Notes: a model not told the origin generated them from the sequence alone. A stretch of DNA of 64,000 nt from Candidatus Bathyarchaeota archaeon (GCA_963768425.1 CAVYHV010000010.1:1-64000); one strand, 5' to 3'; shown: positions 3,738-36,636, counted from the first letter of the stretch. Made by a program: numbers and translations.

Positions 3738-3754
3738 GGCGCCGGGAATGGGAT
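3738..3754 (-). repeat. 17-bp copy of tRNA-Ser 3' end (att-like direct repeat)
   Basis: ggcgccgggaatgggat is identical to 4808-4824; a second degenerate copy (17/23) lies at 3876-3898. Confidence 0.8.
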
Positions 3755-3924
3755 CCTATCCCCAATTTACCAGTAAAACCTGTCGAGCCACAATTTGTCG
3801 AGGGGTTGGACCGGATTTATTGTCAAATTATTCATGAACTACATCTAAGCCCAAGAGTAAGTGCTCTTTCTAGAACTGGGAGTGTCAATTGAACCCATAT
3901 TTAATAGAATTGCGAATGTTAAGG

Positions 3925-4314
3925 TTATTTCAACAGAACTGCATTCGCTACATTTTTAAAGTGCAGATCGCCTGTTAGTATTTTTGACTTCATTTTATTT
4001 GCTGTCGCTAGTACGTAGGAATCGGCAAGCCCAAAATCCTTTTCCGTTTTTCGCATTTCAGCATGAAGTAACCCTGCATTTTTTGAAAGTTCTTCATCGG
4101 CATCTATGATCTGGGAATTGCTCAAGAGTAATGAATAGGCCACTTCAGCATCTTTTCCTTCTCTGGCTACTTTACTGACTAATTCTGCCAACGTTACGGC
4201 GCATGTGTAAACTTCCGTAGTTTCGTCCTCGAGAATTTCCTCAAGTTTGGCTCCTTTCTCACTGCCAATCATGTATTCTAGCCATGCCCATGCATCAACG
4301 ACGTAACTATTCAA
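3925..4314 (-). CDS. vapC: VapC PIN-domain toxin
   Basis: YVVDAWAWLEY, TLAE, GLADSYVLA and LTGDLHF PIN motifs; overlaps the antitoxin stop. Confidence 0.9.
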   Translation of the reverse strand: MNSYVVDAWAWLEYMIGSEKGAKLEEILEDETTEVYTCAVTLAELVSKVAREGKDAEVAYSLLLSNSQIIDADEELSKNAGLLHAEMRKTEKDFGLADSYVLATANKMKSKILTGDLHFKNVANAVLLK

Positions 4315-4507
4315 GCGCTTTCAACTCATCTTCGACGGTGAATGGCGTCATGCCTTTGAGTGCTCCAAAACCTTTCTTTCGACATTTCTTGACACTGATT
4401 TCCAAAAACTCATTTTCCTTAATTTTTTGCGTCTCCACTAATTCCTTCGGTAACGTCACAATGAGGGAACCGCCAACTCGGCGCGTCCTTGTTAAACACT
4501 TGGCCAT
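4307..4507 (-). CDS. vapB: AbrB/MazE-type antitoxin (VapB)
   Basis: RRVGGSLIVTLPKELV AbrB motif, directly upstream of PIN gene. Confidence 0.85.
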   Translation of the reverse strand: MAKCLTRTRRVGGSLIVTLPKELVETQKIKENEFLEISVKKCRKKGFGALKGMTPFTVEDELKALE

Positions 4508-4809
4508 ATTTTATCAGTGTAGAATTAAATTATACATTAGTTATACTTAGATGTTGCGTTAAAAGTTGGCAGGGAGGCAATATTAATCGGCTTCTGAGAC
4601 TTTGTTTAATTTGGCTTCTTCGATGCTAAAGACTTTTCACTCTCAAGCCGTAAAATATGTTAAACTTACTTTATATCGGTTGATACCTCCGAACTCGACC
4701 AAATCCACGCTTTTTTTCATTTATATTATCCATGTTTGGGAGACTCTGCGTTCCCCTTAAGAATTTGTTTTCTGCTATTTGCGATCACAAGCTGGCGCTA
4801 GTAAAAAGG

Positions 4810-4894
4810 CGCCGGGAATGGGATTCGAACCCATGCGGACCTTACGATCCACGGGCTCTCAAGGCCCGCGCGTTAACCACTCTGCCATCCCGGC
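4810..4894 (-). tRNA. tRNA-Ser(TGA)
   Basis: GCCGGGA...TCCCGGC-G acceptor, anticodon arm CGGGC-CTTGAGA-GCCCG, long variable arm, GGTTCGAATCC. Confidence 0.95.
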
Positions 4895-26392: not shown

Positions 26393-26548
26393 GAAAGTTT
26401 GGTAAAGCAAGAGCAATGCTAAAGAGAAAAGACGCCTCTTTCCAATATCCAAGGTCTCGCCTTTCCTGTTGATTCTTGAACTCGAGAAAACACGCTGGAT
26501 TTAGCTTTGACACTGCAGATTTGTTGCATGGGGGAAATTTCGGCGGAA

Positions 26549-27445
26549 TTTTTTTGTTTGCGTTTTGGGTTGCTTTCTTGTAGAGAAGCTCGCATCAGCT
26601 GCAGGTTGATACTTTATTTGACATAATTTGACACAAATTGACATGATTTGACACAAATTTGCAATTCGAAGAATCGATCGGGAATCTTCAGAAGCATGCT
26701 CCAGTGGAAAGAGTGCAGTTATAAAAAAAATTGTTCTTGTGAAATGGGTTGGTTTTCTGGTTTGGGGCTGGAATCATCTGCAACTGGTCTCTCAAAAAAT
26801 ACCAAAACATCTCAAACATACCAAAACATACCAAAAAGTCGCAGAGGAAGAAGCGTTCAAAAGTGTGGTCCAAGTTTTTTTGTCCGGCGTTTTTGGCGGC
26901 AGATTTTTTTGTTTGCGTTTTGGGTTGCTTTTTGTTGGAGAAGCTTGAATCATCTGCAGGTTGATACTTTATTTGACTTTATTTGACCTGTTTTGACTTT
27001 ATTTGACCAAATTTGACTTCAAAAGAATTGAAGGAATAATTCGTATGCCGTTAACTCGAAAGGTAACCTTTAGAGGCAAGCTCCAGAAAGAGAAAAGATT
27101 CCAGCTGAAAAATGTTCTTTGTGTTTTGAGCTGTTTTTTCGGTTTGGGGCTTGTATCCTTTGTGACTATAATCTCAAAAAATCTCAAAACATCTTGAAAC
27201 ATCTCAAAACATCCCAAAAAATCTAGAAAAATCTCTGGCAGATGCGGTAAGAGCATATTGAGGGATAAGCTGATGATTTCCCCCCCAAATTTTTTTGGTC
27301 TTTGTGTTTTGGGTTACTTTTTGGTGGAAAAGCTTAAATCGGTTGCAGGCTCCGTCATTTAAAGTCATTAAACGTCAATAGACGTCAATTAAAGTCATTT
27401 AACGGCCTCTACCGTCAATTAAAGTCAATTGCCGTCAATTAAAGC
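26549..27445. repeat. Five tandem units: conserved ~60-bp leader + 10-bp-period repeat array (+ AbrB gene 5' fragment)
   Basis: Leaders at ~26549, 26726, 26904, 27108 and 27290 (consensus ttgt.ttgyg.tttgggttgcttt....g....gcttgaatc..ctgca). Arrays at ~26616-26659 (atttgacaca), 26790-26837 (taccaaaaca), 26971-27020 (atttgacttt), 27171-27235 (atctcaaaac) and 27352-27445 (aagtcaatta). Confidence 0.9.
27045..27107 (+). pseudogene. Truncated 5' fragment of the tandem-AbrB gene
   Basis: MPLTRKVTFRGKLQKEKRFQL aligns to MPINEKVSFKTMLQKGNRIQI and is cut by the next leader. Confidence 0.75.
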
Positions 27446-27479
27446 CAAACGTTGAATGATAGAAAACGGGGAAAACAAT

Positions 27480-27767
27480 ATGCCCATAAATGAAAAAGTC
27501 AGCTTCAAGACCATGCTTCAAAAAGGCAACAGAATCCAAATTCCAGAATTAATCCGCGGGCAATTCAAAGTCGAAACAAACCAAATGCTGAACATCGGCG
27601 TAAACGATCAAACCACACAAAGCAGCTGGCAGTTCTTTTACGCAAAAATGAAAAAAGATGGACGAATACTGATCCCGCTTCTGATAATTAAACTTCTCCA
27701 AGAAAATGAATCAAAAATTACCGGTCACATTTTAGAAGTAACGATTGAACCTGGCCAAACAGAATAA
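27480..27767 (+). CDS. Tandem (double) AbrB/SpoVT-domain DNA-binding protein
   Basis: Two AbrB-like halves: FKTMLQKGNRIQIPELIR and FYAKMKKDGRILIPLLI. Confidence 0.8.
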   Translation: MPINEKVSFKTMLQKGNRIQIPELIRGQFKVETNQMLNIGVNDQTTQSSWQFFYAKMKKDGRILIPLLIIKLLQENESKITGHILEVTIEPGQTE

Positions 27768-27861
27768 AAATGCAGACTCACAACAATTTCGTTTTCGATC
27801 GACACGTACCTAACCGAAAGCTCTAAATGCGCTCCAACCCTATTTTTCCAAAACGCCAGTT

Positions 27862-27936
27862 GGGCCGGTAGATCAGCCTGGTATGATCGCCGCGTTCGCA
27901 ACGCGGAAGCCGCGGGTTCAAATCCCGCCCGGTCCA
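27862..27936 (+). tRNA. tRNA-Ala(CGC)
   Basis: GGGCCGG/CCGGTCC acceptor with G3:U70, CCGCG-TTCGCAA-CGCGG anticodon arm. Confidence 0.95.
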
Positions 27937-27958
27937 TAACGCGGTCCGAACTCAGCAA

Positions 27959-27983
27959 GGTTCGAATCCCAGCGGCCTCGCCA
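27959..27983 (+). repeat. 3' fragment of a different tRNA (T-arm + acceptor strand + CCA; Arg-like)
   Basis: GGTTCGAATCCCAG-CGGCCTC-G-CCA; matches none of the three tRNAs in the window. Confidence 0.65.
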
Positions 27984-28073
27984 CAACTAAATTTAGTTAC
28001 CTTTGCAGATTTCGATACATGTATACAAGCATACTTATTTGTCTGTTCGACCTTTCATTATTTGGTAATAGGA

Positions 28074-28277
28074 ATGAGCACAACAATTAGAGTCTCAAAG
28101 AAAACTGCAGAAACACTTGAACATCTACGGGAAAAATTAGGCGCTCAAAGCCTTGATGAAGCAATCCAAACACTTGTCAAAAAGCAACGCAAGGCTATTT
28201 TAAAAAGAACGTTCGGTGTTGACTGCAACCGCATCAAACCTTTTACGGAGGCTGACCGCGGCGAAGATCGTGATTGA
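28074..28277 (+). CDS. vapB: VapB-type antitoxin
   Basis: MSTTIRVSKKTAETL...SLDEAIQTL; overlaps the PIN gene. Confidence 0.85.
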   Translation: MSTTIRVSKKTAETLEHLREKLGAQSLDEAIQTLVKKQRKAILKRTFGVDCNRIKPFTEADRGEDRD

Positions 28278-28668
28278 TTCATACGCTTGGATCGAGCACT
28301 TTATCGGAAGCGAGAAAGGCCGAAAAGTAGATGAGATACTAGCAGATGCAGATGAAGTGTATACGCCTGACACGGTGCTTGCTGAGATTGCTCGCAAATA
28401 TTTTCGAGAAGGCATTGATTTTAAAACAATTGATCAACGATTAAACGAAGTAGTTGAGGCATCTGATATCATCTGCATAGATGTTAAATTAGCGGGATAC
28501 GCCGCCAAATGTTATCTTGAATTGGAAGCCAACGCAAAAAAACTTAAGCTGGATCGTCCAAGCCTATTTGACGCCATAGTATTAGCAACCGGAAGGTTGT
28601 TGAAATCAAATGTCTTAACGGGCGATCAGCATTTCAAAAACTTGAAAGAAACGATTTGGGTTGAATAA
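28270..28668 (+). CDS. vapC: VapC PIN-domain toxin
   Basis: VIDSYAWIEHF, VLAE, SLFDAIVLA, LTGDQHF. Confidence 0.9.
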   Translation: MIDSYAWIEHFIGSEKGRKVDEILADADEVYTPDTVLAEIARKYFREGIDFKTIDQRLNEVVEASDIICIDVKLAGYAAKCYLELEANAKKLKLDRPSLFDAIVLATGRLLKSNVLTGDQHFKNLKETIWVE

Positions 28669-28745
28669 TCTTACGCAGGATTGTTTTGTAAACTTTCAAA
28701 TGACAAACAAAACTAGAACTACCCGGGATAGATATATGCCATTCT

Positions 28746-28768
28746 GGGCTCAAATCCCGCCCGGTCCA
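28746..28768 (+). repeat. tRNA-Ala 3'-end copy 1
   Basis: gggctcaaatcccgcccggtcca (1 mismatch), followed by the conserved tail taatccggtctgaactctgaaggttc. Confidence 0.85.
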
Positions 28769-28866
28769 TAATCCGGTCTGAACTCTGAAGGTTCCAAAAA
28801 CCATAGAGACCTATACCCTTCAGGCTCAAATTCAAGGCATGCAATGTTATCACTGGAATTTTGGTG

Positions 28867-29397
28867 TCAAAATATGCTGCTATGTAAAATAATGAAGAAT
28901 CCGAAGTTGCCAATGCCCGCGTTCAGGTTCATTGATCCCATGCAAAGCGCCACTGCGGTAATCGGAATGGCTGCGTATAGGGATGTTTTTTGCTTTATCC
29001 GAAATATTAACATGTAACTTAGAATTACTGTTGGCGCATAGTAAGCTAAAGCGCCTAAAGCTCCAAGGGGCCAGCCTAATGGGTTTATTTCTGAAGCTAC
29101 TCTCGCGATGTTTATGACGTAGAATGTCGTGGCGAGATCGAATGCCCAAAAAGCCAAAACTGCTCCTTGAAGGGAGAATAGGATACTTCCCCAGTTAGGT
29201 ATTGAGTTTATGTTCTTAGGGGCATTTCTTTCTCTGAGCCATAAGTAAATTGCACAAGTTAAGGGAATGATTAAGATGAATAAGAACATTAGGCCCAACA
29301 ATGGTTCTCCGGCTCGGATGAGCGCTGATGCACTGTAGATGCAGATTGCTGTAGCAGAGACAAAGAAGCCTCTAGCTAAGCTTTTCAATGACTTCAT
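28867..29397 (-). CDS. Membrane protein with DUF5658-like C-terminal part
   Basis: AFDLATTFY...EINPL motif, multiple TMs. Confidence 0.65.
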   Translation of the reverse strand: MKSLKSLARGFFVSATAICIYSASALIRAGEPLLGLMFLFILIIPLTCAIYLWLRERNAPKNINSIPNWGSILFSLQGAVLAFWAFDLATTFYVINIARVASEINPLGWPLGALGALAYYAPTVILSYMLIFRIKQKTSLYAAIPITAVALCMGSMNLNAGIGNFGFFIILHSSIF

Positions 29398-29686
29398 GTT
29401 CTGTTTTCACTTACACGCAATAATTGTATCGTACGATTTAATACCTTTGCTCTAAGGCTACTTGCCATTGACATAGTTCAACACAGATACACATCAGCAA
29501 TTTCATCAGCCAAGAACACTTCCCATACATTTGGCACAACACGCGCTTAGAGCGCAGGGGTTATTCACTAAAACGACGAGCGGGCTGTAGTTGGTTAATA
29601 CCGACAGCACAGCGTTATATAGCTTGCCAGTCAATAGGCTTTTGGCTATGCCATCAACCATGCCCAATAAATAAAAATTAGAAAAA

Positions 29687-32600
29687 TTGGTGAAGGACTT
29701 GGGTTTCGTTACTCTAATTCCCATTTGGATAATGGAAGGATTGATGGCTCTCTTCGCGGCATGGTCTGTCAAGAAGGGCTCGGAAATCAAGGCTCCAAGG
29801 GAAGCTTGGGTAGTGCTTTTCCTTCTCTCGATGATGGCTGAAATGGCTATCAGTATTGTAATTTACTTCTATTTTCCAACAGCTGTCTTCGAAATAATAT
29901 TGTTAAATATGTTTTTGATGATGGTCATAGCCTTCGCTTTCGGTATTTTGTATGCATTTGAGGAACCCAAGACCTTGGATGAAACCATAGCCGGCAACGT
30001 GCGGGTAAGATCCCTAATAATTGCATTGATCATCGTCATGGTTCTCCTGTCTGAGGTATTCATGGCCTGGACCTTTGCACTCATCGGTGGAACTGCATCC
30101 ACGGCTGGCGGTCTCCAAGGAATTTTCAGCACGATAACAAACTCTTCGAGTTCTTACTTGTTCATCTTCATGAACTCTGCTGAAATGGCAATCACACTTT
30201 TTTTCATCAGCAACAGAATGCCGAAGGCATTTAGCTGGCTCATTGCGTCTCAAGTTATTATAATGGTCCTTTCTCCAACCGCGATTATCAACTCCGTTTG
30301 GGCTAGCCTCTCTCTGGCTGCCGGCAGCGCCATCATGACTTTTCTGTTCATATACATCTTCAAGTTTCTGCATAATAACCAGACCTTAAGCAAAGGTATC
30401 CTGAACTATCTTCTCTTCCTCATGCTGGCCTATGCCCTAATGATGGCAGGTCAGTTCATCTGGCTTCTTAACGGCGATGCCGCAGTTTTCGTCTTATCCA
30501 TAATCGTCGAGATGGTGGTGTACTTCGGAATAGTATTAGACGAAAAGAAGCTTATTTCTTCCAAATCGGTAAGTTGGCAAGCAATGCCATATCTGGATCT
30601 TTGGCTTCCTCTTTCTCGTATTCTTGGTAGAGTTCTTCATGAGTGGGGTCATGGCCACCCAGGTGTACGGCCAAGGCTTTTTCAATGGAATCATATCTGC
30701 GTCAACAACTTGGCCACTTACACGAATATTGAGCGCAGGCTTTTACGTTGGAACGATGGCTGTCTTCACGTCATGGCTCATCAAAAAAGGCTCGGAAATC
30801 AAGACCTTAATCGAAGCTGGCATCGTACTCTTTCTCCTCTCAATGATAGCTACGACGTTCATCAGCACAGTCGTCTACCTCTACGTCCAACCATCAATTA
30901 CACTAATTGATCTGGTAGCCATTAACATGGCGGTGGCAAGCGCCACAACTGCTGTCGCCTTTTTTGGAACACGCAGCGAAAATGGTGATTTCCTGAAGAA
31001 TGAAGTGGGCAACATCAGGCTTCTTTTGATCGCGTCGATCATCGCCTTGGTCATCCTTTCTGAGGTGTTCATGGGTTGGACCTTTGCGCTGCTTGGCGGC
31101 ACGGTCTCGATTTCCAGCGGTCTACAATGGGTTTATTCAGCCCTTATTCACGCTACGAGCTCCTTCTGGTTCATCTTCATGATGTCCATCGAGATGGGAA
31201 TAACGCTTTTCTTCATAAGAGGAAGGCTGCCAAAGCCACTCGTCTGGATCATGGCATCTCAAACCATCATAATGATTATGTCTCCCACTGCGATTAGTAA
31301 CTCTCTCTGGACCAGCATCTCCCTTGTTGCAGGCAGCGCCGTCATGGTTTTTCTTTTCATTTACGTCCTTGAGTTCCTTTACAAGAATCGGACTACCAGT
31401 TCAGGCATCCTGAACTACCTGATCTTTATCATGCTCGCCTATGCGTTGATGATGGCAGGCTGTTCATCTGGCTTCTCATGGGCGACGCGACAGTCTTCGT
31501 ACTATCCATAATAGCTGAAATGGTTGTTTACTTCGGAATTGTGCTGGACCAAAGAAGACTTGTTTCATCCAAATCCGCAAGTTGGCTAGCAAAGCCGTAT
31601 TGGGTTCTCGGTTTCCTAGGGCTCCTTTTCGTGGCAGAGTTCTTCATGGGCGGAGTCTTAGACATTCAAGTGTATGGCGCAGGTTTTTTCAAAGGGATGA
31701 TGTTTGCCTCTACAGCAGGGTCCTTTGTGAATGCTCTAAGTGCGGGCTTTTTCAATTTCATAATGTTCTTCACCAGAATAACCATGTCTCCGTGGTACCT
31801 GATAATGATGGGCATAGAGATGGGCGCGCTTGTAGCCTTCAGAATCAAGTATACACGGGAGCTCGAGACTAAAGTAAGATTCCTGCTTTTGATTCTCGCT
31901 TTCAGCGTATACAGTGTACTCCTGCCCATATTCTTAATCCCGCTCGACCTCCTTAGGCAGACCCCGTGGCTAGGCTGGGCGTATGGGATAGGAAGCTCAG
32001 GTGCCATTGCTCCAACCGTATTAATGGCTTTGCTCGGCACATTTCTGATCAGCGGCATCCTTTCCTTTCTCTTTGGCAGCAGGCAACTCTGCTCAGTAAT
32101 GTGCATGGCTCCCCTCATGTACCAGGGAACGACTCTGGATGCCATGAACTCATTTAGTGGAACTTCCAGGCTTGCGTGCAGGCTGCGCACGAACAAGATA
32201 TCATCTCCCTATAAGGTAGTTGTATCGGCGGTGTGGATCTCGCTGCTGGCTGCAGCTTTACTGTCCTACTTGACTTCTGTAGGAATTTTAGGTATCTCCG
32301 TCTTCGGCATGGATCCCGCCTACTTCCTGTACATGTTTTACTTCGGCTTTCTTTGGTACGTTATCTGGATGATGATTCCCTTTGTAGGGACTTACGGCTG
32401 CGTTTCAACTGGCATGTGCGGCTGGGGCTCTTTCAACCAGCTTATTTCCCGAGTTGGGTTGTTTAGGCTAAAGGTGAAGGACGAGGCGCTTTGCAGCAAC
32501 TGTACAACAAAGGACTGCTCGAAAGTCTGCCCCCTGGGGCTTACAGGTCTGCCGGCGGCATTCGCTGCTAAGGGCGAGTTCAGAAACTACAAATGTATTG

Positions 32601-32692
32601 GCGACGGGAACTGCGTTTCGGCCTGCCCACACAGAAATATATCCTTCTACGATGTGAGACATTGGCTAAGAGAAAGGTTCCGAAATAGATGA
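29687..32692 (+). CDS. Polytopic membrane 4Fe-4S protein (NapH/FixG-like C-terminus) with duplicated N-terminal membrane module; two frameshifts
   Basis: Three overlapping ORFs are colinear; CSVMC, CVSTGMCGWG, CSNCTTKDCSKVCP, CIGDGNCVSACP. Confidence 0.8.
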
Positions 32693-32780
32693 AGCGTGTT
32701 TTGTTAATTGTGGGAAAGTAGGTTTTTTCTTCAGACAATCTTTATATCGATTGATTATTGTTTAACTAATGTGTATCGAT

Positions 32781-32990
32781 ATGGTTAAGGTAAAACTTTC
32801 GTCTAAGTTTCAGGTTGTAATTCCTCGAGAAGTCCGAGAAAAGCTAAACTTGAAGCCTGGCGAAGAAATCGTGATGATAGAAAAATCAGGTGTAATACGT
32901 TTAGTGCCGCAAAAACCCATAAAGCAAATGCGCGGTTTCGTCAAAGGTGGAGATACTCAAAATATCCGCGAAGAGGAAGATCGCTTTTGA
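32781..32990 (+). CDS. vapB: AbrB/MazE-type antitoxin
   Basis: KLSSKFQVVIPREVREKLNLKPGE. Confidence 0.9.
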   Translation: MVKVKLSSKFQVVIPREVREKLNLKPGEEIVMIEKSGVIRLVPQKPIKQMRGFVKGGDTQNIREEEDRF

Positions 32991-33367
32991 TACTCATCGA
33001 CTCCTACGGATGGCTAGAGTATTTCCTTGATGGGCGACTTGCCGAAAAATACGCAAAGTACGTAGAAGACGCAAATGAGGAAAACTACGTAACTCCAACC
33101 ATTGTGGTTTATGAAGTTTATAAGAGAATTAGAAGTATTCAAGGCGAGCAAAGTGGACTAGAAGCTTATTCGCAGATAAATAGAACTAAGGTGGTGGAAT
33201 TAAATTCGCAGATTGCGCTAGAGGCGGCAGAAATAAGCTTGTCGACAAATTTGGGAATGGCTGACTCATTGATCGTTGCAACAGCAAAAGCCTACGACGC
33301 GCAAATAGTAACAAGTGACAAACACCTTAAAGGTCTCAAAGAAACCAAATTCATATCGACACAATAA
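32987..33367 (+). CDS. vapC: VapC PIN-domain toxin
   Basis: LIDSYGWLEYF, VVYEV, LGMADSLIVATA, VTSDKH. Confidence 0.9.
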   Translation: MILIDSYGWLEYFLDGRLAEKYAKYVEDANEENYVTPTIVVYEVYKRIRSIQGEQSGLEAYSQINRTKVVELNSQIALEAAEISLSTNLGMADSLIVATAKAYDAQIVTSDKHLKGLKETKFISTQ

Positions 33368-33604
33368 GTAGGCAGGTTGGCTTTCAACCCTTCTCTTGAG
33401 ACTAATTTTCGTCAAACGTTTGAATTGTTTATTGTCAGCACGCCCACAATTCCCATAGTCATAATCAAAAGCTTAACAGCTTCCTTTTTCGTCTTTGAGG
33501 TAATCAAAAACAAATGGAAAATAATGTTTTTAAATTAGTCCCCTAGAACATTTCAATATAACTGAGAAAAAGAAAGCAAATCTCCCACGGGATAGAAGTC
33601 GATT

Positions 33605-33639
33605 GGAATCTGCGGGTTCAAATCCCGCCCGGTCCACCA
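33605..33639 (+). repeat. tRNA-Ala 3'-end copy 2, ending in CCA
   Basis: ggaatctgcgggttcaaatcccgcccggtcca-cca. Confidence 0.85.
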
Positions 33640-33656
33640 GTTTAGCTCGGTTTTGC

Positions 33657-34091
33657 CTATTCTGGGTCTTCCAAGAAAAGTAAAGTGATGTCAAATGATT
33701 TTTTTCCCATTTCGTCTGCCAACTCTTGCTCTTGGCGGGCAAAAAGGGCGTTGCCAGCAATTTTATGTGCCAATGACAAAATGAAGCAGTCTGGAAGCGA
33801 CATTGCTCTTTGGCATTTGATTTTGGCCGCTTCGTTGAATAATTGTGAGGTGTCTTCAACCGTAAAATATCCTGAATCGAGGAGTTTGTCTACTCTTTCT
33901 TTTGATTGTTGCCAGCCAAGTTTTCTGCATAAAACATATCGTAGCTCCGTTATGGCTAACTCTGTGGTATAGGCTTCAATCATGTCGGTTTCGAGAGCTT
34001 TTTTGAGCTTTTGTCCCAAGCTATCGCAGTATATTAACTCAATTAGTGCGCTTGTGTCTATGGCTAATTTTCCTTTCAAGTCTTTCATCAT
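33657..34091 (-). CDS. vapC: VapC PIN-domain toxin
   Basis: LAIDTSALIE, AITELRY, SLPDCFILSLA. Confidence 0.88.
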   Translation of the reverse strand: MMKDLKGKLAIDTSALIELIYCDSLGQKLKKALETDMIEAYTTELAITELRYVLCRKLGWQQSKERVDKLLDSGYFTVEDTSQLFNEAAKIKCQRAMSLPDCFILSLAHKIAGNALFARQEQELADEMGKKSFDITLLFLEDPE

Positions 34092-34308
34092 CAATCTTCC
34101 GTTCTGTCTCCAATTCTTCGAGTGCCTCTTCAACTCCTATTGTTGGGCTGCATGCTTCTTTCAGCAACCGAGGGTTTTTCTCCCGGTGATCCACCAAGAA
34201 ACGAAGGGCGTCATTTAGGTCAACTCGGCGCCCCGTCTTGATTTGAAGTTCGGAGGCAACCTTCAAGAGTTTTTCTTTAACGTCCTCAGTTACAGATATC
34301 GTAGTCAT
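34039..34308 (-). CDS. vapB: VapB-type (RHH-like) antitoxin
   Basis: MTTISVTEDVKEKL...VDLNDALRFL; overlaps the PIN gene. Confidence 0.82.
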   Translation of the reverse strand: MTTISVTEDVKEKLLKVASELQIKTGRRVDLNDALRFLVDHREKNPRLLKEACSPTIGVEEALEELETERKIDDERLERKISHRHKRTN

Positions 34309-34388
34309 AGAGATCACATTAGCTATAGCAGCCATAGTAGATATAACTATCTAGTTGTATCTGCGAGAATTAATCCATTAACGGGTTA

Positions 34389-34445
34389 GGTATGATCTTC
34401 GAGGTCGCAACGCGGAAGCCGCGGGTTCAAATCCCGCCCGGTCCA
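34389..34445 (+). repeat. tRNA-Ala 3' copy 3 (attR-like)
   Basis: 41-bp identity from the anticodon loop, plus ggtatgatc D-arm match at the same spacing; conserved tail follows. Confidence 0.9.
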
Positions 34446-34575
34446 TAAGGCGGTGTGAACTCTGAAAGGTTCAAAGACCTTAGAGATACAATCCCTGTGG
34501 TGTTCGGGCCTTTGGTGGTAGAGACTTTTTCTAATAACTTGCGTTTTTCAACTTTACACCATTCGGGCAGATCTG

Positions 34576-34746
34576 CTACTCCATTTTTCCGCCGCACATG
34601 GGGCATTCTATTGGCAATTTCTTCTGGATACTCATTAATTCATAAGAGCACAAAAAGCAGAAGTAGATTTGGCATTTCGGGCAGTAATGGAAGCCGCCGC
34701 CGATCATCTTGCCGCATGCATCGCAAGGTCTGGACAAATCGGGCAT
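34576..34746 (-). CDS. Small Cys-rich zinc-finger protein
   Basis: CDAC, CPKC, CFLC, CPMC. Confidence 0.75.
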   Translation of the reverse strand: MPDLSRPCDACGKMIGGGFHYCPKCQIYFCFLCSYELMSIQKKLPIECPMCGGKME

Positions 34747-34787
34747 AAAGAAGCAGGCAGTCAAAACGCCTTAAAAGCCAAGTGCCG

Positions 34788-34929
34788 GAGCGACGTTTTG
34801 GCGCAGTGGAGAGTACACTGAAAGAAACCTTAGGGAGAAGTCCTTGTCGGGTCTGCCTCTCGAAGGATTGCCCGTGCTTTTGCTCGACGCCTGCCGTCTT
34901 TGCCTTGGCCTAAGTTTTCCACCCCGCTC
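34788..34929 (-). ncRNA. Candidate structured 5' leader RNA
   Basis: Nested complementary segments GTGGA/TCCAC, CTTAGG/CCTAAG, GACG/CGTC and CGGG/CCCG; TATA-like gatataata upstream. Confidence 0.35.
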
Positions 34930-35312
34930 AAACTTGTTACAATAATGCGCTTTGTCTATTATATCTTACGAATCAATTATATTAGGCAAGAATGAAGAAA
35001 AATTGCTGGCCACAAAAACCTGCGACCGCAGTCACGGCATATGGAGTTCAAATTTGCCAAGTTCGTGTGCCTCAGAATTTGTTAACTGACATCATCAATA
35101 GGACTAACCAATCCTTTCTCCGACTAACGTGTTTTTCTTCACAGGCAACATGCTCTAATGCAAGCTGTTAAATAAAAATAATCACGCACGTTGCACCATA
35201 AAAGGATCAGACAATTGGATGAGAGAATAATATGTGCATGTTTGTGTTCTCATTGCAACTGTTTTTTTAAGCTAAAATAAGAAAAAAGAAAATGCAAACT
35301 CTTCTATTGCAG

Positions 35313-35621: not shown

Positions 35622-36365
35622 ATGCATATGAATGAAAATCGTACGGTTAATAAAAAACCATTTTTATATTCAAAATTAGTGCCTGTTATCTTTCTAGTAA
35701 TGATCGTGCTCTTTTTCTTATTGGTCATTTTACTTGTCAAAGAAGCGACTGCTAAAACTTATTTATTATCGGTGATAGCGGTCTCTCAAACGACTGATCA
35801 ATTGAATCTTTCAAGTTTAATTCAGGTCCTTAGTGCGATAAGTTCTATTGCTGTAATTCTGGGTGTTGTGTTCATTGTAGTTCAGCTAAGACAGAACACC
35901 AAGTTAATTGACTTAAATACGAAGTTAACGGATGCAACTTTCCAAGAAGTAAAATCAAACATCTCCTTTGAATTACTGGAGAAATTGACGGACGAATCAT
36001 TTGCTAGGCGCAGAAGCTTCATGTGGCATACGGTCAAGAAGTACCAAGCTTCTAATTGGGAAGGCTTTGACGACAGCGCGGATGATTTTGAAGTGCGAAA
36101 CTTCGCATTCATGTACGACCTTTTCGGTCAACTGGCAAAAGACGGCTTAATTGATCTTGAGACCCTTGCTAAAACATTCAAGTACCTTGTAGCGTTGGAT
36201 TGGCAAGCTTTCGAACCCGCTTCAAAACATATCCAGAAACGCTATAACCTTGAACGAAACGAGATATTTTCAAATTTTCAGTGGCTGGCTAATGAAACTG
36301 AACGAATATTGAAGCAAAAAGGAAGCCAGATCCCGAAAATTACGCAAACAGAGAGAAAAGATTAA
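35622..36365 (+). CDS. DUF4760-like membrane-anchored protein (true start may be later)
   Basis: TM + QLRQN, then VRNFAFMYDLFGQLAKDGLID...F.NFQWLA. Confidence 0.7.
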   Translation: MHMNENRTVNKKPFLYSKLVPVIFLVMIVLFFLLVILLVKEATAKTYLLSVIAVSQTTDQLNLSSLIQVLSAISSIAVILGVVFIVVQLRQNTKLIDLNTKLTDATFQEVKSNISFELLEKLTDESFARRRSFMWHTVKKYQASNWEGFDDSADDFEVRNFAFMYDLFGQLAKDGLIDLETLAKTFKYLVALDWQAFEPASKHIQKRYNLERNEIFSNFQWLANETERILKQKGSQIPKITQTERKD

Positions 36366-36636
36366 TTTTGTGGTTCCAACTCGCTGCGGGTTCAAACCCA
36401 TAGGCGCGCTTCGGTCCTATTCGTTTTTACCAAATGTCCTTGCATATGCTGATTACATTAAGCTGCCTGATTTGAGGCTCTTCCATTTCTAACAGAGTAA
36501 TCTATCTCCCAAGTGCGAGGCTGGCAAACTAACCCTTTGTGCGGGCGTAATCCTCCGCTTACTTCGGAAGATTCAAATGTGATGTTGGGAAAAAGCGATG
36601 TTGTATTCGAATAACTTTAAGCAGGAAAGCTATCGC

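Follow-up and report, generated by a model that had tools for sequence, protein, structure and literature searches.

Toxin–antitoxin cassettes between copies of a tRNA-Ala(CGC) 3' end in a Candidatus Bathyarchaeota archaeon: a probable accretion array

Introduction

Few prokaryotic genes are as mobile as toxin–antitoxin (TA) pairs, and it is seldom clear how a bare two-gene module moves. The present analysis concerns a stretch of 64,000 nt of Candidatus Bathyarchaeota DNA (GCA_963768425.1, CAVYHV010000010.1:1-64000; hereafter the window), corresponding to positions 1-64000 of contig C10 of the source genome G000, a metagenome-assembled genome (MAG) of 2.96 Mb in 33 contigs with 91% completeness and 4.75% contamination. 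In this window, three direct copies of the 3' end of a tRNA-Ala(CGC) gene delimit three segments, each of which holds one VapBC pair. With somewhat better than even confidence, we regard the region as an accretion array of small, integrase-less TA elements that are flanked by attachment (att) sites, resemble the cis-mobilizable elements (CIMEs) of bacteria and would be moved in trans at the tRNA gene's 3' end.

Integrons are marked by an integrase gene, intI, beside the cassette array, by an attI site next to intI and by attC sites, imperfect palindromes that close each cassette, while the cassettes themselves are mostly promoterless, stand in one orientation and are read from Pc. TA pairs are frequent in such arrays, where they possess their own promoters, occur in either orientation and are thought to stabilise the array. 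TA cassettes are described as a known component of chromosomal integrons (PMC13108822). CIMEs, as portrayed in PMC5704250, retain attL and attR, have lost the integrase and transfer genes, and are moved by accretion with another element.

In archaea, it is established that a partial copy of a tRNA marks an integration event and that repeated use of a site gives rise to arrays, and vapBC pairs are counted among the horizontally moved genes (PMC9897764, PMC6563490, PMC3718332, PMC3119797). The elements covered there share with the present locus a tRNA target, a partial tRNA copy at the far end and arrays formed by successive integration. They also differ from it: the cryptic integrated elements of Thaumarchaeota carry an integrase by definition, the smallest measuring 2.6 kb (PMC6563490), the tRNA fragments of Thermococcaceae bound elements of 9-23 kb (PMC9897764), and the vapBC loci of S. 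islandicus are linked to degenerate insertion sequence copies rather than to tRNA fragments (PMC3718332, PMC3119797), the stabilisation of variable regions by vapBC having been discussed for the Sulfolobales (PMC3119797). No account of integrase-less TA cassettes bounded by archaeal tRNA fragments was found in the literature, subscription journals and supplements being outside the search. The present locus differs in the stacking of TA-only units of 0.75-1.1 kb without an integrase-bearing partner, in the reappearance of the same units in other species in permuted order and at tRNAs of different types, and in its archaeal host.

Copies of the tRNA-Ala(CGC) 3' end

The intact tRNA-Ala(CGC) gene, located at 27861-27937 (+) by ARAGORN and matched by Rfam RF00005 with 63.3 bits, is read as attB/attL of the array, and the three direct copies of its 3' end follow downstream of it on the same strand. 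Copy 1 (28746-28809, +) comprises a tRNA 3' end at 28746-28769 (an exact match of 20 nt, or of 23 nt if one change is allowed) and a non-tRNA arm, the D-box (D1). Copy 2 (33605-33639, +) corresponds to the tRNA over 33605-33636 (25 nt exact, 32 nt at 94%), is followed by CCA and is without a D-box, while copy 3 (34389-34486, +) matches over 57 nt at 89%, from the tRNA D-loop onward (34389-34446), includes an exact match of 42 nt starting at 34405, and carries the D-box D3. The three copies, with E-values of 2e-7, 2e-10 and 2e-14 in a 12-kb search space, lie far outside chance expectation and confirm the recurrence of the tRNA end in direct orientation at 28746, 33605 and 34405, which had been reported in an initial annotation made by a model from the sequence alone. 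The stretches that the copies separate, given there as approximately 0.8, 4.8 and 0.8 kb, measure 808 nt (A), 4836 nt (B) and 752 nt (C).

The repeated unit, which had been equated with the tRNA end, exceeds it except at copy 2: it is a 64-nt composite of the tRNA 3' end, the sequence 'TAAnGCGGTCyGAACTC' and a T-arm-like hairpin, and it is found behind the tRNA gene, copy 1 and copy 3 and is missing behind copy 2. In the arm that adjoins the tRNA gene (27938-27985, +), the D-box TAACGCGGTCCGAACTCAGCAAGG is followed by a nested fragment (27959-27985) from the 3' side of a tRNA of a second type, recognised in the sequence and by a T-arm scan, which comprises the T-loop, the acceptor strand and CCA and constitutes the left end of cassette A. 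The D-box is kept beside the att sites of unrelated elements, with five sites in G000, two of these being on contig C17. A retro-derived origin of the CCA-ending fragments was ruled out because CCA is genomically encoded in many congeneric tRNA-Ala genes, and a 'GGGATAG' motif upstream of copies 1 and 2 was dropped, as it is not general among relatives.

Gene content of the segments

In agreement with the initial annotation, each segment contains one VapBC pair, consisting of a PIN gene and an open reading frame (ORF) upstream of it, the antitoxins being of the RHH type, of the MazE/AbrB type and without a family, respectively, and one pair being inverted. Cassette A (27959-28745, +) encodes vapB (RHH) at 28062-28277 and vapC (PIN) at 28270-28668, the start of vapC overlapping the stop of vapB (the PIN ORF is listed from 28216/28270 to 28668); the Pfam matches are RHH_1 (1e-4) and PIN (1e-13), and the NCBIfam VapC match is weak. 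The vapBC-2 module of segment B (32723-33385, +) encodes a MazE/AbrB antitoxin at 32769-32990 and a PIN protein at 32987-33367 (Pfam; PIN 1e-18). It has edges of its own in related populations, where contigs of public sequencing runs display loose ends at 32722/32723 (runs X2 and X10) and a joint at 33385 (X2). Cassette C (33637-34388, −) encodes vapC (PIN) at 33657-34133, with a Pfam match of 8e-14 and a start that reads MMKDLKGK in relatives, and an upstream putative antitoxin of 98 aa at 34039-34335 (−), for which neither Pfam nor NCBIfam returned a family.

The small overlapping genes that precede the PIN genes, together with the RHH and MazE/AbrB antitoxins of two pairs, identify these as predicted type II VapBC systems, and nothing unusual was found in the VapBC genes themselves. 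Each cassette forms an operon of two genes, preceded by 100-200 nt of upstream DNA, and cassette C is inverted. Segments A and C hold no further ORF of substance beyond the TA pair, cassettes of 0.75-0.8 kb offering no space beyond the two genes. The statement that the small segments contain nothing else is accurate as regards genes, with the qualification that A opens with the second-type tRNA fragment; likewise, the notion of minimal TA cassettes stacked at tRNA ends describes A and C well, but not B, which carries cargo and in which vapBC-2 has its separate edges at 32722/3 and 33385.

Comparison with CIMEs and integrons

The locus is like the CIMEs of the ICESt1-type islands of streptococci, as described in PMC5704250, in that attL and attR derive from a tRNA 3' end, in that elements stand in tandem at one site, and in that integrase and transfer genes are absent, the integrase of another element being thought to move both. 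At the ends of segments A, B and C stand the tRNA gene or direct copies of its 3' end, and the segments hold no integration or transfer genes of their own, only a TA pair (with cargo in B) and no recombinase family match; two of the four features that define a CIME are present. The present elements differ from CIMEs in being archaeal, in their size of 0.75-1.1 kb with a TA pair alone, in being stacked without an integrase-bearing partner, and in the permutation of the same cassettes across species. Furthermore, PMC5704250 describes CIMEs as decay products of integrative and conjugative elements or of integrative and mobilizable elements, whereas no such parent of cassettes A or C was found in 49 loci; an unrelated integrase-bearing element lies at the same tRNA in the congener G008.

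The resemblance to integrons, which had been proposed in the initial annotation, extends to an array of small mobile cassettes in which TA pairs are frequent and stand in either orientation. Unlike in integrons, there is no intI, attI, Pc or attC: no integrase gene lies beside the array on C10 (179 kb), and the repeated sites, among which neither attC nor attI was found, are direct tRNA-Ala 3'-end copies of 20-57 nt. Nor do the cassettes appear to be promoterless and of one orientation, cassette C being inverted and DNA being present upstream. A further difference is that the sites fall into two or more att classes and that several platforms, namely five tRNAs, are in use. The array is not an integron by any defining feature; among known concepts, the CIME with tandem accretion at tRNA genes comes closest, and the array would function as a set of cassettes served in trans. 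The accompanying proposal that tRNA fragments act as att sites of stacked small elements is supported.

The same pattern at other tRNA genes of the genome

The last 32 nt of each of the 34 tRNAs predicted by ARAGORN in G000 (35 Rfam tRNA matches represent nearly the same set) were compared with the 12-kb flanks of the same tRNA. Direct copies of the tRNA end within 12 kb were found 17 times downstream, at nine tRNAs, versus once upstream across the 34 tRNAs. Eight of the 17 inter-repeat segments measure at most 1.2 kb, and six of these eight contain only one toxin gene (five PIN, one ParE) and a small upstream ORF, for which a Pfam family was returned in three of six cases (RHH, MazE/AbrB and DUF2683); one of the remaining two contains an MNT gene alone and the other is empty (0.28 kb). 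The nine larger segments comprise three with a PIN pair and other genes and six with ordinary cargo and without PIN.

Nine of the 16 PIN genes of G000 (17 matches, one gene being frameshifted) lie downstream of a tRNA at a distance of no more than 6.5 kb, in a zone that makes up 7% of the genome (binomial P 3e-7); counted by cluster, five of 12 PIN clusters fall within this zone (P 9e-4). The genome-wide enrichment of vapBC near tRNA ends that had been suggested for examination is thus present in this genome. The five tRNAs concerned are Ala-CGC, Ser-TGA, Ser-CGA, Ser-GGA and Thr-GGT. At tRNA-Ser(CGA), a four-cassette array on contig C24 starts with a DUF2683/ParE pair and a 13-nt copy of the tRNA end, and continues with an antitoxin/PIN pair, a tRNA-Ser fragment of another type, a second antitoxin/PIN pair, a further fragment and an AbrB/PIN pair. 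A second instance within the window (3738-4894, −) is composed of tRNA-Ser(TGA) at 4808-4894, a MazE/AbrB gene at 4307-4507, a PIN gene at 3925-4314 and, at 3738-3754 (−; E 6e-6), the tRNA 3' end copied over 17 nt. The pattern is real and more general than the initial annotation had recognised, its interpretation being partly supported.

A further arrangement was observed on contig C17 of G000 (C17:10058-26450, L065), where two repeats of 140 nt (83% identity), each containing a tRNA-Ala-like 3' end and a D-box, enclose 16 kb in which there is neither a tRNA gene nor an integrase, but an ORF resembling an AbrB-PIN fusion, another that is PIN-like and two adjoining small ORFs of 97 and 126 aa.

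Cassettes in related genomes

The tRNA-Ala(CGC) gene is 94-100% conserved across the genus, and 18 congeneric tRNA-Ala(CGC) loci were compared, three of them shortened by contig ends. Among these, G023 carries a 0.8-kb MNT/HepT pair flanked by tRNA-Ala and a 19-nt copy of its end, while G008 carries, between the tRNA and a 25-nt copy, a 4.9-kb element in which a PF00589 integrase (4e-22) is accompanied by an AbiJ-like gene and two more ORFs; Pfam identified no TA pair among the four ORFs scanned in this element. A 1.3-kb segment without TA adjoins the tRNA in G022, two or three fragments with cassette C in last position occur in G021, and a homologue of cassette C (73%) lies directly at the tRNA in G016.

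When relatives represented by one genome per species were scanned, cassette C was found in nine further loci, with 83-92% nucleotide identity over 610-860 nt, and homologues are also present in G016, G020 and G021, the unit as a whole measuring 740-860 nt. In locus L037, the tRNA is followed by cassette C, a 54-nt fragment, a DUF433/DUF5615 pair and a 53-nt fragment, whereas in L034 it is followed by DUF433 with a broken DUF5615 and a 182-aa ORF, a 44-nt fragment, cassette C and a 59-nt fragment; the order of cassette C and the DUF433/DUF5615 unit is therefore swapped between the two. Cassette C accordingly stands first in L037, second in L034 and last in the window and in G021. It is flanked by fragments of 23 and 51 nt in L038, where there is no tRNA within 3.9 kb, and in L033 it lies 2.4 kb past a unit of tRNA-Cys, AbrB-PIN and a tRNA-Cys fragment and adjoins a HicB-like gene and a weak HicA match. 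A fragment of the type of copy 2, with '(CCA)GTTTAGCTCGG', precedes cassette C in G020, G021, L038, L039 and L041.

Cassette A recurs as a unit of 750-810 nt with 87-89% identity in G023 (contig C8), in L044 and in L042/L043, a pair of metagenome contigs nearly identical to each other. In these loci, homology begins at 27959/27968, the cassette opening in every case with the T-loop of the nested fragment; 3' fragments of a non-Ala tRNA type flank it on both sides in L042/L043 and G023:C8. More distant homologues (67-76% nucleotide identity; L045-L054) match the coding part only and are thus uninformative on boundaries. Between the same genome pairs, the cassettes are 87-90% identical, as compared with 73-75% for ileS. 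The occurrence of the same TA pairs in other orders and places in relatives suggests that they travel as tiny cassettes without an integrase of their own, and the comparative data show what appears to be mobility at the level of the individual cassette.

These observations bear on the view that the segments are simply products of decay, i.e., the last remnants of larger integrase-bearing elements in which TA pairs survive since their deletion is lethal, and in which the cassettes are immobile. Integration remnants are common at archaeal tRNA genes (PMC3718332, PMC3119797, PMC9897764), and the full element at the same tRNA in G008, the broken cargo of segment B, the degeneracy of several tRNA fragments and the absence of a distal fragment beside cassette C in G016 and G021 would all suit this view, yet it is rather unlikely given that units of 0.75-0.85 kb with the same ends recur at different array positions and at other tRNA types, that two cassettes are swapped in order between L034 and L037, that the cassettes are far more alike than ileS between the same genomes, that no integrase is present in any context of cassettes A or C among the 49 loci, and that the G008 element itself is without a TA pair among its scanned ORFs. 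The comparison of relatives downstream of tRNA-Ala, proposed as a check in the initial annotation, points to cassette shuffling rather than to decay alone.

The fragments that bound the cassettes fall into two classes, the short ones starting at the T-arm (19-25 nt) and the long ones near the anticodon stem (42-59 nt). A long fragment stands to the right of cassette C in all four arrays with a right-hand fragment (the window, L034, L037 and L038; 51-59 nt) and to the right of the DUF433 pair in both cases, while a short one follows cassette A, the MNT/HepT pair of G023 and the integrase element of G008; the class of the right-hand fragment goes with the cassette on its left. The integrase sublocations within tRNA genes that Williams reportedly described in 2002 are those to which the two classes are likened. 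The two length classes, the tie between class and cassette, and the conserved D-box favour the probable action of a recombinase over chance or simple homology.

It is on this point that an explanation by homologous recombination alone, with crossovers in conserved tRNA sequence and partial copies following DNA uptake, and without a site-specific recombinase, appears quite unlikely: the repeats do offer 20-57 nt of identity in a tRNA that is conserved across the genus, and no integrase is linked to the arrays, but such exchange would leave the two discrete repeat lengths, the conservation of a non-tRNA D-box beside the att of unrelated elements, and repeats of merely 13-17 nt poorly explained.

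In L039 (3930-3980) and L041 (2680-2725), an inverted T-arm copy stands before the left-hand fragment of cassette C, GTGGTTTGAACCC, 5 nt and GGGTTCAAATCC forming a near-perfect hairpin; loose ends occur at window position 33614/33615 in runs X1 and X10.

Contigs of public sequencing runs

Public runs were available as Logan contigs, the best run containing 0.22 of the sampled words, and contigs were aligned at a likeness of at least 90%, most of them deriving from related strains of peat and soil communities; uncovered parts, and the habitats of runs with small shares, were not used as evidence. Three joints in run X2 stand out. The first, 34486->28818 (125 nt on each side), connects the right end of cassette C, with its att copy and D-box, to the start of segment B; the second, 32686->34538, continues from the end of the large gene of segment B and omits vapBC-2 and cassette C; the third is a back-link, 33385->28830. 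As the contigs in question are 90-95% like the window, they belong to other strains or species, and the joints hint at other arrangements of cassettes around the same cargo in relatives, a circle and a different array fitting them alike. A joint 27886->33612 (X1 and X4; side 26) was not used, since the aligner has most likely split the tRNA of a relative there, and an internal joint, 30554->31563, reflects the 1009-nt repeat of the large gene.

Recombinases

On the whole of contig C10 (179 kb), no match to PF00589 or PF00239 was found, and a tblastn search with an integrase returned nothing at E<=10, which extends the initial remark that no recombinase is visible in the window. Serine recombinases were not found in the 91%-complete genome. 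The tyrosine recombinases elsewhere in the genome, a list of which had been called for, amount to seven PF00589 matches on C30, C14, C28, C8 and C3. Three of these are full-length homologues of the G008 integrase with 30-34% identity (C30:110302-111147, C30:105944-106789 and C14:260427-261278), to which a broken homologue on C8 and two other PF00589 genes are added as candidate enzymes; the resident tyrosine recombinases include one on C28 and one at C30:143455-143958. Across 49 loci (384 kb) covering all contexts of cassettes A and C, an integrase occurs only at the G008 locus. In SSV-type elements, the int(N) and int(C) halves border the element and the att site lies within the int gene; a split integrase of this type was ruled out by the lack of any PF00589 or tblastn signal on C10. 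On C30 (105944-111330), two tyrosine integrase genes of 282 aa lie 4.4 kb apart, and the DNA upstream of the two 5' ends is similar; this suggests a tandem of related elements that does not stand near a tRNA gene.

With regard to a dedicated integron-like system, in which one specialised recombinase would operate on a tRNA platform to achieve regulated, adaptive capture and reordering of cassettes, the presence in a single genome of arrays at five tRNAs, the longest with four cassettes, the permuted cassette order between genomes and the back-joints in a related population are what would be expected. We nevertheless consider it very unlikely, since no recombinase lies beside any array, the cassettes have their own regulatory regions and stand in both orientations, the pattern is missing in two closed congeners, and the two or more att classes and several tRNA targets imply several enzymes. 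An assembly artefact, by which contigs of mixed strains would have been joined at repeated tRNA ends in a MAG with some estimated contamination and short repeats, is hardly credible, as independent assemblies contain similar arrays at the same tRNA, in the interior of contigs that range from 89 kb to 954 kb, and as run contigs span the junctions at 27500-27909 and 34261-35000 and most of the segments.

A model of cassette accretion

Under the favoured reading of an accretion array of CIME-like TA elements, each element would have brought a copy of the 3' part of the tRNA as its attachment site, and each integration would have rebuilt the tRNA gene and displaced the previous 3' end downstream, giving rise to direct repeats between the elements, so that the sequence behind each copy would belong to the element on its right. 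Cassettes A and C would represent minimal cassettes, with one att-type fragment and one VapBC pair with its own promoter region and without a recombinase, and similar minimal units would be those at four other tRNAs of G000. Tyrosine integrases acting in trans, supplied by other integrated elements or by an incoming element, most likely move the cassettes, much as integrases would be supplied in trans to cis-mobilizable elements in bacteria. TA pairs may dominate because addiction guards them against being lost as the remaining cargo is purged: an element that has no integrase but kills the cells that lose it would outlast other cargo, and TA pairs would for this reason fill the small cassettes. 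The anatomy, the surplus of tRNA-end copies behind tRNAs, the purely TA content of the small segments, the occurrence of the same cassettes at varied positions in other genomes and the integrase homologues elsewhere in G000 are observed; that an integrase catalyses the process, that circles are formed on the way and that addiction retains the pairs is what we infer.

Several findings weigh against this model. Twelve of the 18 congeneric tRNA-Ala(CGC) loci have no insertion in the sequence at hand, cassette C has no detectable distal fragment in G016 and G021, and the left side of vapBC-2 is without a tRNA fragment. The copies differ by 8-17% between genomes, so that their exchange need not be recent, and no relative of the VapC of cassette C or of cassette A was found in viral contigs. 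Homologous recombination by double crossover through tRNA sequences would be expected to yield the same products. No integrase of G000 adjoins a tRNA-Ala-type att site, and none can be linked to these sites. In the closed congeners, PIN genes are not enriched downstream of tRNAs (one of 18 in G003 and two of seven in G014). Finally, neither an excised circle nor an empty site was seen in the same population, the material being contigs only, with at most 22% of the words in any run.

Cargo of segment B and neighbouring sequence

The cargo of segment B (28810-32722, both strands) consists of a membrane ORF of 176 aa (28867-29397, −), without a Pfam or NCBIfam family, and a membrane/4Fe-4S gene of approximately 1000 aa (+) with Fer4 matches in Pfam, which is broken into three ORFs (29687-30910, 30624-31511 and 31478-32692). 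This gene (29687-32692) contains three internal repeats of approximately 1009 nt, and elsewhere, at 86-91% nucleotide identity, G009 has it as one uninterrupted ORF (at least 910 aa) and G016 as two. Contigs of related strains carry 1-nt indels at 30591/30592 and 31461, close to the frame changes, so that either genuine frameshifts or errors in the consensus may account for the breaks.

Directly past att copy 3, an ORF of 62 aa with a double zinc ribbon (34576-34764, −) has no Pfam or NCBIfam family, and DNA like it (73-82%) occurs at several places per relative genome, e.g., three in G003. A non-coding block of approximately 230 nt (35062-35296) has 78-86% identity to single places on unrelated contigs in at least seven congeners; it includes a weak C/D-box small nucleolar RNA match at 35068-35147 (−), with 29.9 bits and under the gathering score, and is possibly a small RNA gene. 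The array may extend to a T-arm-like site at 36383-36399, beyond a DUF4760 gene (35622-36365).

On the other side of the array, direct repeats of approximately 355-389 nt lie between ileS and the tRNA (26548-27349). Short repeats with a 10-bp period are found at 27171-27240 (ATCTCAAAAC-like) and at 27343-27457 (CGTCAATTAAAGTCA-like), the latter stopping where a family-less ORF (27456-27767) starts. Parts of the stretch at approximately 26520-27140 are found again in G000 on C1, C9, C10:125760 and C14 (82-93% identity) and on C8 (71%).

Implications

TA modules are seen here with attachment sites of their own, at several positions and tRNAs across species, and without a recombinase of their own. 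A broader proposal, which we hold only tentatively, is that Bathyarchaeia possess a tRNA-anchored cassette system in which two-gene TA modules, and possibly other small modules, with tRNA-derived att sites would be captured, stacked, reordered and exchanged among several tRNA 'platforms' and among species by tyrosine recombinases acting in trans. For the annotation of archaeal MAGs, the locus serves as a warning that short tRNA fragments can mark the boundaries of cassettes of less than 1 kb, far smaller than the integrated elements that are commonly looked for. It also renders the question of mobility testable, in terms of which integrase acts, whether circles are formed, and whether addiction is the reason for arrays filled with TA pairs. 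If true, the tRNA-anchored system would represent, in archaea, a functional equivalent of the integron, and it would explain in concrete terms the movement of TA pairs as units in their own right.

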